Positions 40,707-45,331 of a stretch of 64,000 bases of DNA are shown here, piece by piece; position 1 is the stretch's first letter; each line of letters opens with the position of its first letter. The stretch is from an uncultured Acidobacteriota bacterium. GTDB lineage: Bacteria > Acidobacteriota > Thermoanaerobaculia > UBA5066 > Gp7-AA6. Under the pieces are notes generated by a model. It saw only the letters and a program-made list of their open reading frames with translations, was not told where the DNA came from and searched no databases. The position numbers and the translations under genes are program-made. The stretch covers positions 407,949-471,948 of the forward strand of contig CAVRXJ010000025.1 of assembly GCA_963725095.1 (NCBI GenBank). The letters run 5' to 3'.

Positions 40707-41660
40707 TCAGGCATGGTTGCGGCTCGAGGCGTGACAGGTCATCTCGGCGCCGCGCTCCACCTGGATCGTCGTGTGGTCGATGCCGGCCTCTTCCTTCAGG
40801 AGCCGCTGCACGGCCTGGAGGATCTAGCCGCGCCCGCTCTCGGGCGCGGCCGAGATGTGGACGCTCGCCGAATGCAGCCCCGACGTGAGGGTCCAGAAGT
40901 GCAGGTCGTGCAGCGCTTCGACGCCCGGGGATCTCGAGGATCCGGGCGCGCAGCGTGCCGACGTCGATCTCTCCCGGCGTGCCTTCGAGCAGGATGTGCG
41001 CCGACTGTTTCAGCAGCGAGACGGCGCGCGGCAGGATGAACACCGCGACACCGATCGACACGGCGGGGTCGAGCCAGGTCCAGCCGGTGCGCGGAATCGC
41101 GATGGCCGCCGCGACGACGGCCACCGACCCGACCAGGTCCGTCAGCCACCTCCAGGTGCGCCGCCCGCAGGTTCAGGCTTTCGTTCGCGGCCGCTGCGAC
41201 AGAAGGCGCATCGCGATGAAGTTCGACGACGAGGCCCGCGACGGCGACGGCCAGCATGACGCCGCTGCGAACGACGACCGGTTCGCCGCAACCGGCCGAT
41301 CGCTTCGAAGAGCGATCCACCCCGACATGACGAGCAGGAGCTCGGCGTTGACGAATGCCGCGAGGATCTCGGCGCGGTAGAAGCCGAAGCTGTGCCGCCC
41401 GGTCGGCGCGCGGTCCGCCAGACCCATGGCCGCGTAGGCGAGGATCAGGGCGGCGATGTCGGCGAACATGTGCGCCGCGTCGGCGAGCAGGGCGAGGCTT
41501 CGCGAATAGAGCCCGCCCGCCGACCTCGAGCAGCAGAACGCCGGCCGAGAGCATGAGCGCCGCCCGCAGCCGCTGCCGCCATTGCTTGCGGTCGCCGGCC
41601 CCCGGACGGCTCCGCGGGCGATTGGGCGTGCGTGTGCGGGCGCGCGAGCTCCACCGGCAT
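40707..41660 (-). pseudogene. cation diffusion facilitator (CzcD-like) transporter, disrupted as assembled (several frame breaks plus an in-frame TAG at 40824-40826)
   Basis: SLALLADAAHMFADIAALILAYAA...RHSFGFYRAEILAAFVNA is in ORF 41173... [54 protein letters not shown] is in ORF 40669... The C-terminal domain reads [49 protein letters not shown] when translated manually. ATG 41660 directly abuts the upstream stop. Confidence 0.8.
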
Positions 41661-43689
41661 CTAGACCCGCTCGACCTGCGACCCGCGCGTCGTTGAAGCA
41701 GGCGCCGCCGCCGAGGTCGGTCAGGGTGTCGGGCGCGAGGGCCGAGGCGGTCGCGCCGTTGTCGGTGTTGTGGCTCCACAGGCCCTTCGGCAGGAAGACG
41801 ACGCCGGGCCGGATACCCTCGTCCAGGCGGGCGGGGCAACGCACCTCGCCGCTCCCGTTGAAGACGCGCACGGCCGCGCCGTCCGCGATTCCCCGCGGCG
41901 CCGCGTCGGAAGGGTGCATCTCCAGGGGGACGCGCGGGGCGTGGAGCTCGCCGAGCGTCGAGCTGATCGTGCGGTCGCTCGCAGGCGAGATCAGGGTGAG
42001 GGGGAATGCGTCGCCGGCCGGCTCCTCCCGGAAACCGTAGAGCCCGAGCGGCGCCTCGCGGTCGAGGTTCTCCGGAACGAGGTGGACCTTTCGGTCCGCC
42101 GTGCGAGGGAAGGCATCGACAAACTGCACGGGGTTCTTCCCCACCTCCGGGAAGGCGACGCCGTCGCGGGCCAGCGCCTTGCGCAGGGGTGCCCCCACAC
42201 GGCTCGACCCGAAGACCGCGTCCGTGATCTCCGCGGTCGTCTCGGGATCTCCCGGCCGCGCGACACCGGTCCGCCGGCAGAGGTCCGCGAACACCTCGTG
42301 GTTGGGCCGCGATTCCCCGACCGGCGGGATCACCGGAGGAGCCTCCTGGAGGGCGTACGCGCCGTAGCCGCGCGAGAGCTCGGTGCGCTCGAGAAAGGTC
42401 GTCGCGGGCAGCACGATGTCGGCGTAGAGCGCCGTGTCGGTCATCACGGGGTCGAACACCACCGTCAGAAGGTCCTCGCGCTCGAGGCCGCGGCGCACCT
42501 TTTCCTGCTCCGGCAGGGTCATCAGCGGATTGGCGTTGTAGACGAAGAGCAGCTTCGATCGCGGGCTTGCCGGAGAGCAGCGCCTCGCCCGCCTTGTTCA
42601 TGTTGATCTCCCGCGTCGGACGCCGGCGCCCTGCGCCGCGGCCGCCCGGGAGTCGAGGTCCCAGATCGAGGAGTTGCTCATCGTGTAGCCGCCTCCCCGC
42701 ACGCCGAACTTTCCGGCCACCGCCGGCAGCGCCAGGACCGCCGCCACGGCCGACCCGCCGTTGCGGTTGCGCTCGAGGCCCCATCCGCACCGCAGCGCCG
42801 CGGGGCTCGATTCGGCGTACAGCGACGCGAACCGCTCGATCTGCGAAGCCGCGACGCCCGAGGCCGACGCCGCGCGATCGATCGTCCAGGGCGCCGCCCG
42901 GCGGCGCAGCTCCTCGGACCCGGTCGTGTGCTCGGCGAGGAACTTCTCGTCCGCCCCGCCGTTTTCGAAGAGCCAGCGGATGACCGCGAGCGCGAGCGGA
43001 AGGTCGCCGCCGGGGCGCACCGCGAGGTGAAGGTCGGCGTGCTCGGCCAGCCGCGTGCGCCGGGGGTCGACGACGACGAGCTTGGCGCCCGCGCGCTGGG
43101 CGGCCTGGATGTGCGGCACGATGTGGATGCCGGACACGGAAGGGTTGACTCCCCAGAGGACGATCAGGCGCGCGTGCGCGTAGTCCTGGGGAGCGATCCC
43201 CGCCATCTTTCCGTAGAGGCCCGACGCCGCGCTGCTCGAGGGAGCGGCGCAGACCGTGCGGGCCAGCCGCGAAGCGCCCAGGCGCGAAAAGAGTCGGGCG
43301 TCCGTCGTGTCCTGCGAGAGGTACCCGTTGGACCCTCCATAGGACAGCGGCAGGATCGCCTCGCCCGCCCCGCGGGAGGCGAGGTCCCGGAGCCTGCCGG
43401 CGATCCGATCGAGCGCCTCGTCCCAGCTGCCCCGGCGAAACTCGCCGTCGCCCTTTCGTCCCGTCCGGATCCGCGGGTACCGCACGCGGCGGTCTCCGTG
43501 AACGTGTTCCGGGTACCGCCGCACCTTCGAGCAGATGTAACCCTCGGTCAAGGGGTTGACGCGACTGCCTCCCAGGGCGACCACCCGGTCTCCTTCCAGG
43601 CGAACCTCCAGGCTGCAGGCGTCGGGGCAGTCGAGCGGGCAGACGCTGGAGACCGTGCGGGAGTCGGGCTGGGTCGGAATGGCTTCCAT
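41661..43689 (-). CDS. molybdopterin-dependent oxidoreductase (MopB superfamily, no Tat signal seen); at least 3 frame breaks
   Basis: GGAGGA RBS before ATG 43689. The N-terminal Fe-S motif is VCPLDCPDACSL. Then LSYGGSNG...IVLWGVNPSVSGIH...KLVVVDPRRT are in ORF 42598... The section LFVYNANPL...VVFDPVMTDTALYADIVLPATTFLE and the C-terminal beta-barrel domain FPLTLISP...MHPSDAAPRGIADGAAVRVFNGSGEV are in ORF 41173... Confidence 0.8.
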
Positions 43690-43900
43690 GAACGTTGGTC
43701 CTCCGGCGTCTGATCGACACCGCGATGGTAAGCCCGACCGGGCCTCGGGGCCAACTGGACCCTCGGGGTGGCATTGGGAGGCCGGCGGATGGAGCCCCTT
43801 CGGGCCGGAAGCGAACCCCGTCGCCCGGCTGGGATGCTCCGACTCCACCCTCGACGCCGATTGCATCATCCCGGCGGCCGACGCTATCCTCTGTCGCACC

Positions 43901-44189
43901 ATGGGCGTGACGCCGGCCGTTTCGATCCACGTCTTCGGTCCGCTGCGCACGTACTGCGCCGGCGCTTCGAGGCTGTCGGTGTCGGCAGACACCGTGCGGG
44001 TTCTGCTGGCGGACCTCGAACAGAGGGAGCCCGACTTGTACCGCAACGTGTGCGACGAAACGGGCACGCTGCGCGGCCACTTGAACGTGTTCGTGAACTC
44101 GGACAACGTGCGCGATCTCGGCGGCGTCGACACGGCTCTGACAGCCGGGGGACGTGGTGACATTCCTGCCGGCGGTCTCAGGAGGTTGA
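43901..44189 (+). CDS. MoaD/ThiS-family ubiquitin-like small protein (C-terminal Gly-Gly); frame break at a G-run near ~44150
   Basis: MGVTPAVSIHVFGPLRTYCAG...LNVFVNSDNVRDLGGVDTAL lies within ORF 43556... After correcting one base in gccgggggac, the end reads AGDVVTFLPAVSGG*, which is the beta-grasp sulfur-carrier hallmark. Confidence 0.7.
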
Positions 44190-44191
44190 AG

Positions 44192-45305
44192 ATGGCGGAT
44201 CGGGTGGTTCTCACGATCGGGACGAGGAAGGGAGTGTTCGTCGCCGAAGCCGCGAAACCAAGGCGCCGCTTCGAGCTGCGCGGGCCCTTCGGTTCCGGAG
44301 TCCCGGTGTACACGACGCTCATCGACACGCGCGGCGCCCCGCGCCTGTACGCCTCGAGCTGCAATCCGTTCTTCGGCATGAAGCTGCTGCGTTCGACCGA
44401 CCTCGGGAAGTCCTTCAAGGAGACGAAGTCGGCGCCGGCCTTCCCCAAGGACGACGGACGCGCCCTGGCCAACATCTGGTCGCTCGAAGTCGGGGACGGC
44501 CGGAAGGAACTGTGGTGCGGGGTCGAACCGGCCTCCCTGTTCCGGAGTCCTGACGGCGGCGATTCGTGGCAGATGGTGCCCGGCATCAGCAATCACGAGC
44601 ACGCGCGCAAGTGGCAGCCCGGTGCGGGCGGCCTCTGCCTGCACACGATCGTGCGCGACGGCAATCGCGTGCACCTCGGGCATCTCGACCGGCGGCCACT
44701 ACGTCAGCGAGGACGGCGGCCAGACCTTCCGGGCCTCCAATCAGGGCGTCGGCGCCGGCTTCGCCCCCGATCCCTATCCCGAGTTCGGGCAGTGCGTTCA
44801 CAAGATCGCGCGGCACGAGGGCGCGCCCGGCCGGCTCTACATGCAGAACCACGGCGGATGGGCCGATTGGACCGGGCCCGGGGGACCGCGGCCGGACATC
44901 GGGGTGCTGCGCAGCGACGACTACGGCCGCTCCTGGCGATCGATCGCCAAGGGCCTGCCGTCGGACTTCGGATTCCCCATCGTCGTCCATCCGCACGACG
45001 CCGACACCGTCTACGTGCTGCCTCTCGAACCGGCGACGCGATCCTGCCCCGGCGGCGCGCCCGCCGTGTGGCGCAGCGAGAACGGCGGCGGCTCGTGGAG
45101 CCGCCTCGCGCGCGGGCTGCCGAAGAGGCAGAGCTACTTCACCGTCCAGCGTGACGCGATGGACATCGACCGGCTCAAGTCACCCGCGCTCTACTTCGGA
45201 ACGACGACCGGCCAGCTCTGGATCGGGAGGGAGGGCGGTGAAGAGTTCGACTGCCTGTTCGACTCGCTGCCGCCGATCCACAACGTCAAGGTCGCCGTCG
45301 TGTGA
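44192..45305 (+). CDS. BNR/Asp-box repeat beta-propeller protein (sialidase-like/Ycf48-like fold); frame break near ~44690
   Basis: AGGAGG RBS before ATG 44192. Five Asp-box-like motifs are present: RSTDLGKSF, RSPDGGDSW, VSEDGGQTF, RSDDYGRSW, RSENGGGSW. The pieces lie in ORFs 43556.. and 44622..45305. Confidence 0.7.
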
Positions 45306-45331
45306 GCGTCCGGCCTTCTTCGGACAGCCGC

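Follow-up and report, generated by a model that had tools for sequence, protein, structure and literature searches.

A two-gene operon of a Gly-Gly-tailed CysO-like protein and a seven-bladed Asp-box propeller in an uncultured Acidobacteriota bacterium

The operon and its reading frames

We analysed a pair of adjacent genes in a 64,000-nucleotide (nt) stretch of the genome of an uncultured Acidobacteriota bacterium (contig CAVRXJ010000025.1, positions 407,949 to 471,948), called the window below and numbered from its first letter. The first gene encodes a small beta-grasp protein of the ThiS/MoaD type with a Gly-Gly tail (the carrier), and the second encodes a protein with five Asp-boxes (the propeller). 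Window positions 43861-45325 form a self-contained two-gene operon that is widespread in bacteria and apparently uncharacterised. Its features were as follows.

43861..43866, + strand: -35-like hexamer TTGCAT, a comparative motif
43885..43890, + strand: -10-like hexamer TATCCT, separated from the -35 by 18 nt and from the ATG by 10 nt
43901..44189, + strand: carrier gene (Pfam ThiS), for a 95-residue CysO/SAMP1-type beta-grasp protein ending ...LPAVSGG
44141..44151, + strand: zone of the first one-base insertion (most likely a surplus A at 44143, possibly a base of the G-run 44147-44151)
44180..44185, + strand: AGGAGG Shine-Dalgarno sequence of the propeller gene, within the carrier Ser-Gly-Gly codons (TCA GGA GGT)
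44192..45305, + strand: propeller gene, by homology for a 370-residue, predicted cytoplasmic, seven-bladed Asp-box protein of the PDB 3B7F family
44393..45098, + strand: five Asp-boxes (S-x-D-x-G-x-x-W/F), namely STDLGKSF (44393-44416), SPDGGDSW (44546-44569), SEDGGQTF (44706-44729), SDDYGRSW (44913-44936) and SENGGGSW (45075-45098)
44636..44852, + strand: codons of a conserved Cys-x-His/His cluster, namely C149 (44636-44638), H151 (44642-44644), C201 (44793-44795), H203 (44799-44801), Q218 (44844-44846) and H220 (44850-44852)
44228-44230, 45039-45041 and 45150-45152: conserved codons K13, R283 and R320, outside the span of the cluster
44678..44680, + strand: second one-base insertion, with GGG in place of the GG of relatives (RVHLG/ISTGGHY)
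45308..45325, no strand assigned: weak hairpin GTCCG-GCCTTCTT-CGGAC, a possible transcript end between the propeller stop and a convergent TPR gene

Of 77 loci from relatives, 42 had a motif of the form TTGCnn-N16-19-TAnnnT ending 6-13 nt before the carrier start, where shuffled sequences would give 0.2. The strict sigma-70 consensus scan did not flag the window promoter, so the promoter call rests on this comparative conservation. No Shine-Dalgarno sequence was present ahead of the carrier ATG. These results suggest a sigma-70-like (housekeeping-type) promoter abutting the ATG and a leaderless or near-leaderless mRNA. At the junction of the two genes the order is AGGAGG, the carrier stop codon (44187-44189), a 2-nt gap and the propeller ATG at 44192, and the arrangement TCAGGAGGYTRA-N0-6-ATG was common to nearly all of the 82 loci of the window's clade. 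Because the Ser-Gly-Gly codons double as the Shine-Dalgarno sequence in almost every locus, translation of the propeller is probably coupled to that of the carrier, which would favour joint production of both proteins. The terminator scan showed no canonical site after the propeller gene. The guanine-cytosine content of the pair (68.6%) was within one standard deviation of that of the window (70.2%) and therefore gave no compositional sign of recent transfer.

Neither gene is open in the assembly as given. The carrier gene (289 nt) and the propeller gene (1114 nt) are each one base in excess. Translation of the carrier from the ATG at 43901 in frame 0 gives MGVTPAVSIHVFGPL...VDTALT, after which the frame is lost; the forward-strand text from this ATG up to the slip is MGVTPAVSIHVFGPLRTYCAGASRLSVSADTVRVLLADLEQREPDLYRNVCDETGTLRGHLNVFVNSDNVRDLGGVDTALT. 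The +1 frame continues as ...PGDVVTFLPAVSGG-TGA, with the stop at 44187-44189. The propeller gene is split in the same manner by a slip at GGG 44678-44680, with ...GNRVHLG before it and ISTGGHYVSEDGG... in the following frame. Illumina-derived contigs from three sediment metagenomes, about 95% identical to the window, had one base fewer at 44142/44143, and related contigs from four metagenomes had one base fewer at 44677/44678. Alignment to the related locus L005 showed a surplus A at 44143 (CTGAC-GCCGGGGGAC), the alignments of L022 and L015 concurred, and at the second site the aligned loci of relatives read GG, not GGG. The sequence CCGGGGGAC (Pro-Gly-Asp, five G) is usual in many relatives. 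Other relatives read ..LTAGDVV (Ala-Gly-Asp, four G), so the exact surplus base within 44141-44151 cannot be fixed and the version in the G-run is possible. Either repair gives 95 residues with an identical stretch of 13 residues at the C-terminus, and Gly-Gly stands directly before the stop once the insertion is ignored.

A sequence-only reading of this DNA had described a protein of about 95 residues ending in TFLPAVSGG after removal of one G from a G-run and, two nt downstream of it, a propeller of about 370 residues. The length and Gly-Gly tail of the first protein stood, as did the layout, the AGGAGG sequence and the five Asp-boxes of the second. However, the surplus base is more likely A 44143 than part of the G-run, and the propeller frame had been taken as open, the second insertion being missed.

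We consider both insertions very likely to be assembly errors of the long-read type and not gene decay, since the nearest relatives lack both and other genes are frameshifted in this 68%-complete assembly. The assembly (4.0 Mb, 31 contigs, completeness 67.6%, contamination 0.36%) has moaD, moaE and the neighbouring molybdoenzyme gene frameshifted as well. Its canonical moaD-moaE pair (C3:113246-113880) carries several frame shifts, with MoaE matches in two frames, which shows the assembly to be prone to indel errors throughout. If both insertions were real, the pair would be a dead copy, two pseudogenes in this organism, a question separate from that of function. Such a dead copy would agree with the interruption of both genes in the assembly, and the public sequencing runs searched for source reads held at best <=26% of the sampled words, so that the insertions were checked against relatives only. 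However, if the indels are set aside, the propeller shares 89% identity across all 370 residues with intact proteins of other genomes and the carrier about 78% with intact relatives, and neither has a further lesion. Both insertions are absent in the closest relatives, and the breakage of moaD and moaE at this completeness is typical of uncorrected long-read indel errors. A dead copy is thus quite unlikely; for this genome both genes are most likely intact and the assembly needs polishing.

Conservation of the pair

The two genes form a unit that co-occurs, co-diversifies, swaps order and occasionally fuses, and their products very probably work together. A carrier gene was found immediately upstream of the propeller gene in 82 of 82 loci of the window's clade. 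Nearly all of these carriers end in ...LPAVSGG-stop, and the propeller gene starts 0-6 nt later. The propellers of the clade are about 85% identical across phyla, which points to strong constraint on the pair. The best 80 loci (79-88% identical) came from Acidobacteriota, Eisenbacteria, Planctomycetota, Gemmatimonadota, Nitrospirota, Acidimicrobiia and Limnocylindria. When a single genome was scanned for each species, at least 556 species had a close propeller relative.

The association extended beyond this clade. A Gly-Gly-tailed beta-grasp gene was adjacent in 17 of 21 divergent Acidobacteriota members of the propeller family, in either order and with at least four carrier types. In the 3B7F branch, whose propellers are about 38% identical to that of the window, an 86-residue carrier ending ...ALAGG/ALSGG lies directly downstream. 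Carrier and propeller distances across 100 pairs were correlated with a Mantel r of 0.95, the top of 999 permutations being 0.29; the carrier came first in 88 of these pairs and the propeller in 12. Independent natural fusions of the two proteins (P0003 with GG-CN-M, P0264 and P0305) retain the Gly-Gly at the junction. Conservation of the pair in related genomes, on which the sequence-only reading had staked its idea, was thus found in near and distant genomes alike, and the co-occurrence of this carrier subfamily with BNR proteins, which it had asked about, was borne out by the same distances and loci.

At a threshold of E<=1e-30, a member of the propeller family was present in 111 of 301 sampled Acidobacteriota genomes (82 of 186 genera), and the representative library held 2326 propeller-family clusters at 50% identity. 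The pair is thus abundant as well as widespread. Clustering of all open reading frames (ORFs) of 81 loci showed no conserved third gene, with only shadow ORFs of the pair forming clusters.

Within the taxonomic family of the window's genome, one genome (G286) has a propeller of another subfamily, 44% identical and with the carrier downstream (L092), and a second (G024) has none. The pair is therefore patchy within the family, yet the window copy shares 89% identity with copies from other classes, which suggests horizontal spread.

The two proteins and their relatives

The corrected carrier scored 48.7 bits on Pfam ThiS (PF02597; gathering cut-off 22.5, E 1.2e-12, residues 9-95), and the unshifted part of the raw genome frame scored 22.5 bits. 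The carrier relatives ended in [VI]SGG in 75 of 80 cases. On the NCBIfam SAMP1 model NF041918 the carrier reached 58.7 bits (cut-off 60) and on the archaeal-MoaD model TIGR01687 46.1 bits (cut-off 49.5). Scores on the MoaD equivalog models were 20.4 bits against a cut-off of 66.15 (TIGR01682) and 15.8 against 94 (NF008347). The best solved relatives were CysO 3dwg_C (2e-12) and 4n6e_B (2e-10), followed by a Methanosarcina SAMP1 homologue. By these comparisons the carrier appears to be a Gly-Gly-tailed protein of the ThiS/MoaD fold, closest to CysO and other than the ordinary MoaD.

Three ThiS-family genes were found in the genome: the window carrier, a canonical MoaD (...FLPPVAGG) followed directly by MoaE (C3:113246-113537; pair at G000:C3:113246-113880), and ThiS (...VELVGGG) at C3:244.9k. 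With a separate MoaD adjoining MoaE and the equivalog cut-offs not reached, the small protein is not the genome's ordinary MoaD; the contrary result had been named by the sequence-only reading as one that would overturn its idea. A MoeZ-type E1 enzyme with a C-terminal rhodanese domain is encoded at C11:28186-30153 and a second E1-like gene at C25:58973-60793, on the window's contig and about 350 kb away. The genome had one marginal JAB match, on another contig. The earlier statement that no E1, MoaE, ThiG or JAB gene is adjacent to the pair was correct, as the genome's E1, MoaE and JAB matches are on other contigs or about 350 kb off. The ThiF-family frame at C25:58973-60793 has a C-terminal extension of about 110 residues ending ...RGLYQKYVGG-stop, and this E1 may bear a tail domain of its own with a Gly-Gly end; the extension gave no Pfam ThiS match.

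Invariant residues of the carrier in this clade include Cys19 (Y-C-x-G-A, window 43955-43957) and a C-D-E-T-G motif (Cys51, window 44051-44065). Both are absent from CysO and from the carriers of other branches, and they co-occur with the extra conserved propeller cysteines C57, C109, C285 and C354 of this clade. Variant carrier ends were SGGSR, SGGSACRTE and SGGC, and one carrier had VSEG for VSGG (L067:5723-6001, L065:3666-3968, L030:5671-5958 and L048:5708-5995). Residues past the Gly-Gly, as in the first three variants, occur in carriers that need JAMM trimming.

We compared the pair with known carrier systems. CysO of Mycobacterium tuberculosis, which works with CysM, MoeZ and Mec+ (PDB 3DWG), is the carrier's closest solved chain; the match runs end to end and includes the same ...ILPAVxGG tail. 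A MoeZ-like E1 with rhodanese is likewise encoded elsewhere in the window's genome, and the window carrier stands beside MoaD and ThiS as a second or third member of the ThiS family. However, the partner here is a seven-bladed Asp-box propeller and not a pyridoxal-phosphate-dependent sulfhydrylase, no cysM or mec gene was linked to the pair in the 81 loci, the window carrier has the CDETG motif and its thiocarboxylate is only proposed. The second-best structural relative is the CysO-type protein of the 2-thiosugar pathway of Amycolatopsis orientalis (PDB 4N6E), where, as a precedent, a CysO-type carrier activated by a shared E1 serves a client enzyme of an unrelated kind, BexX. BexX is a ThiG-like TIM barrel within a biosynthetic cluster, whereas the window pair stands alone in variable neighbourhoods. 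As with MoaD and MoaE, a Gly-Gly-tailed beta-grasp gene adjoins its presumptive client gene and rare fusions keep the Gly-Gly (MoaX is a fusion form of molybdopterin synthase that is cleaved after the Gly-Gly), and the presence of the pair correlates with MoaE-positive genomes. The MoaD equivalog score, the separate MoaD-MoaE pair and the propeller itself, which is unlike MoaE, set the window pair apart. SAMP1/SAMP2, TtuB and Urm1 share the beta-grasp fold and the Gly-Gly tail, but their known clients are MoaE, TtuA/NcsA and Uba4, and no propeller partner was described in the literature searched. Linkage to archaeal UbaA or MoaE, as for SAMP1, was likewise not seen in the 81 loci.

A molybdopterin oxidoreductase gene is found 210 bp away from the pair, in divergent orientation. 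This gene (window 41173-43690, - strand) is broken into two or more ORFs (42598-~43690 and 41173-42522), the latter continuing into cation-diffusion-facilitator-like sequence, indicating further assembly frame errors or fusions. The sequence-only reading had offered three options for the head-to-head arrangement: an unusual cofactor-sulfuration accessory, a ubiquitin-like tagging module or mere co-location. The last fits best, because tblastn of the window molybdoenzyme against about 105 pair-bearing loci found no homologue in the flanks and no third gene was conserved in the 81 loci; as a conserved neighbour the molybdoenzyme did not hold up, and it appears to be there by chance.

A function as molybdenum-enzyme accessory, in which the pair delivers sulfur to the molybdenum cofactor (Moco) or a molybdoenzyme (e.g. 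as terminal sulfido ligand) with the head-to-head enzyme as its partner, would fit this 210-bp divergent arrangement. It would also fit the distribution of MoaE, which was present in 108 of 111 propeller-positive and 116 of 190 propeller-negative Acidobacteriota genomes (odds ratio 23, p 3e-14, phylogeny being ignored). The catalase control showed no positive association with the propeller (14/111 vs 38/190). However, besides the absence of molybdoenzyme homologues from the flanks, no Moco gene was among the conserved neighbours in the 81 loci, and three genomes, two of them at least 99% complete, have the pair and no MoaE. All three keep a strong MoeB/MoeZ-type E1, so that a shared activator explains the association equally well. 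We therefore regard the accessory function as very unlikely. We read the association, together with the E1 kept in the MoaE-less exceptions, as dependence of the pair on the activating E1 of the Moco pathway, while a looser tie to Moco metabolism is conceivable.

The propeller scored 31 bits on Pfam BNR (PF02012; cut-off 27) and matched 3b7f_A over residues 5-368 in phmmer (E 1.2e-54). The AlphaFold2 model of P0002, a protein 89% identical to the window propeller, had a predicted local distance difference test (pLDDT) score of 84.4 and a predicted template-modelling score (pTM) of 0.88. Foldseek aligned this model to the seven-bladed 3b7f with a template-modelling score (TM) of 0.88. After a large gap the next folds were GH74 enzymes, DAIP, Ycf48 and sortilin, with TM 0.4-0.6 and 12-18% identity. 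The propeller has no signal peptide, and in the P0002 model a beta-strand begins at residue 4; the protein is thus predicted to be cytoplasmic.

The PDB entry 3B7F has seven blades and five Asp-boxes, and its function is not known (PMC2716378). It is Reut_B4987 (YP_299179.1) of Cupriavidus pinatubonensis JMP134, deposited by structural genomics as a 'putative glycosyl hydrolase with BNR repeats', and we found no dedicated Pfam or NCBIfam model for its family. It belongs to the same family as the window propeller, and a Gly-Gly-tailed ThiS-family gene follows its gene. It differs in the reversed gene order, in the about 38% identity, in having Lys and Asp at the positions of C149 and C201, and in lacking a 15-residue insert of the window propeller (GGWADWTGPGGPRPD).

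Several named classes were tried for the propeller and rejected. Sialidases of the GH33 type and other BNR glycoside hydrolases fell below threshold (BNR_2 PF13088, 17.7 vs 31.4 bits; F510_1955, 43.2 vs 175), and so did Ycf48/HCF136 (PF14870, 14.1 vs 27 bits; NF010237, 12.9 vs 326). A GH74 xyloglucanase, in which two tandem seven-bladed propellers make up a cleft, was rejected on the single 370-residue propeller, the target-normalised Foldseek TM of 0.17-0.34 and 14-18% identity. The sortilin Vps10p model (PF15902) passed its cut-off with 38.9 against 33, yet the best stretch covered profile positions 3-109 of 446, and the window protein has seven blades where sortilin has ten. Searches of Pfam and the PDB showed no resemblance to any known peptidase.

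In 28 of 28 diverse members of the propeller family K13, H151, H203, Q218, H220 and R320 were unchanged. One subfamily has His in place of R283, and H266 is almost invariant in the same set. Some subfamilies have Gly, Lys, Met or Ala for C149 and Asp for C201. By the strand order of the P0002 model, the innermost strands of blades 3 and 4 begin with H151 and H203, H220 sits at the end of the second strand of blade 4, and K13, R283 and R320 lie in adjacent blades. The model therefore suggests a top-face pocket whose three histidines and basic residues would suit a carboxylate or thiocarboxylate tail and perhaps a metal.

One protein, P0246 (704 residues), has a Ser/Thr protein kinase domain N-terminal to a 3B7F-family propeller and keeps H151, H203, H220 and C201. 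The locus L088 (G136:C1:3362700-3365300) probably also encodes a kinase-propeller fusion, and no carrier is adjacent to it.

The beta-grasp protein could also be a non-covalent structural or regulatory subunit of a ligand-binding or glycosidase-like propeller, with no chemical role for the Gly-Gly. An analogue is TmoB, a beta-grasp-type non-covalent subunit in toluene monooxygenase. Databases label the propeller a glycosyl hydrolase or sialidase, the kinase-propeller fusion suggests a sensor role, and the carrier-propeller fusions bury the Gly-Gly. However, a near-absolute terminal Gly-Gly in four divergent carrier types, kept also at fusion junctions, is hard to explain without chemistry at the tail. 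The predicted cytoplasmic location and the failed glycosidase thresholds likewise speak against such a subunit, which we hold to be highly improbable.

A possible sulfur-carrier function

The literature searches yielded no description of the carrier-propeller pair, and the classic comparative analyses of ThiS/MoaD mention no BNR or propeller partner, so that the pair is still without an assigned function, as had been said of it before. To our knowledge, every characterised carrier of the ThiS/MoaD type has been traced to a defined pathway of sulfur insertion or of tagging; these are the pathways of thiamine, molybdopterin, cysteine, thio-tRNA, thiosugars, siderophores and SAMPylation. We know of no case in which a propeller fold has been linked to sulfur-carrier chemistry.

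We propose that the window carrier is a sulfur carrier activated in trans and that the propeller is a new type of client, a reading to which we give about even chances, its chemistry being proposed. In its favour stand the conservation of the pair as a unit, the likeness of the carrier to CysO, the separate MoaD and ThiS of the genome, the E1 genes that could supply an activator, the invariant residues of the propeller and its lack of a signal peptide, and the peptide-tail binders sortilin and Ycf48 among the nearest folds of known function. In a first step, the C-terminal glycine of the carrier would be adenylated and thiocarboxylated by the genome's MoeZ-type E1-rhodanese enzyme, as CysO of M. 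tuberculosis is thiocarboxylated in trans by a MoeZ-type enzyme. The flexible ...PAVSGG tail would then enter the top-face pocket of the propeller, which would be lined by K13, H151, H203, Q218, H220, R283 and R320 and, in this clade, also by Cys149 and Cys201. Finally, the sulfur of the thiocarboxylate would be passed to, or taken from, a substrate, and the His/Cys(Asp) cluster may hold a metal.

A more specific version is tentative and rather doubtful. It makes the 3B7F-family propeller the first beta-propeller client of a ThiS/MoaD carrier and a new class of enzyme, possibly a metalloenzyme, with a His151/His203/His220 centre and Cys149/Cys201 or Asp as extra ligands. This enzyme would act on the thiocarboxylate of the CysO-like carrier, with MoeZ/MoeB as the E1 and a thiolated metabolite or cofactor as the product. 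If so, roughly one in three Acidobacteria, and many other soil phyla besides, would make such a product. With the crystal structure 3B7F and a culturable, genetically tractable genus (Cupriavidus) at hand, the question is directly testable.

Several results weigh against the sulfur-carrier proposal. No E1, JAMM or sulfur-metabolism gene was consistently linked to the pair in the 81 loci, and for 4 of the 21 divergent members no carrier was seen in the nearest 800 nt or so. In the AlphaFold model of the natural fusion P0003 (paired pseudo-fusion rows; pTM 0.71) the Gly-Gly linker had a pLDDT below 50, so that the model gave no backing to a docked tail. The Gly-Gly is internal in the fusions, so that cleavage would be needed, and the JAB match in the genome is marginal. 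P0246 keeps the His residues, a hint that the propeller may serve for binding or sensing and not for catalysis. The closeness of the pocket residues was taken from strand topology and not from coordinates, and the MoaE statistics leave phylogeny out of account. The thiocarboxylate, the adenylate, the complex and the metal are all proposed.

Protein tagging was the other function weighed at this point. Here the carrier would be a lysine modifier like SAMP, TtuB or Urm1, and the propeller would be a target-recognition factor or, through a His-bound metal, an isopeptidase or tail peptidase. The carrier comes near the SAMP1 cut-off and resembles the Methanosarcina SAMP1 homologue, and SAMP, TtuB and Urm1 are known to be both sulfur carriers and protein modifiers. 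The SGGSR, SGGC and SGGSACRTE ends and the internal Gly-Gly of the fusions imply a processing step, and a metallopeptidase site could be formed by the invariant histidines. The nearest propellers of known function, sortilin and Ycf48, bind peptide tails; the Vps10p domain of sortilin and Ycf48/HCF136 share the Asp-box propeller fold (Foldseek TM 0.4-0.6) and provide an analogy for gripping the C-terminal tail of a partner. However, their identity to the window propeller is 12-16%, sortilin is ten-bladed and extracellular, and neither has a ubiquitin-like partner. No E2, E3 or JAMM gene was linked in the 81 loci, the PADLOC models of ubiquitin-like (Ubl) defence systems gave no match, no conjugates are known, and the propeller has the lack of peptidase similarity noted above. 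Tagging is therefore unlikely. A Ubl-based anti-phage system (Bil and similar) was rejected separately, with no PADLOC match for the carrier or either propeller branch and no linked E1, E2 or JAB gene.

In-frame TGA codons in propeller genes were also followed up as a side lead on selenocysteine. The single case with one TGA among the 111 Acidobacteriota matches was a terminal stop, and another candidate (P0405) was discarded, its sequence ending in Illumina adapter. The metagenome contig Ga0209647_1002356 (L108:8018-9841, - strand) encodes a carrier (...ILPSVAGG) and a propeller with an in-frame TGA at the Cys149 codon (GGL-TGA-LHTI). Downstream of this TGA a search for a selenocysteine insertion sequence (SECIS) gave a fold z of -0.75, no better than shuffles, and Rfam showed nothing. 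The propeller frame is intact for about 220 codons past the TGA and close relatives have Cys at that position, the codon being either a selenocysteine form or a nonsense error.

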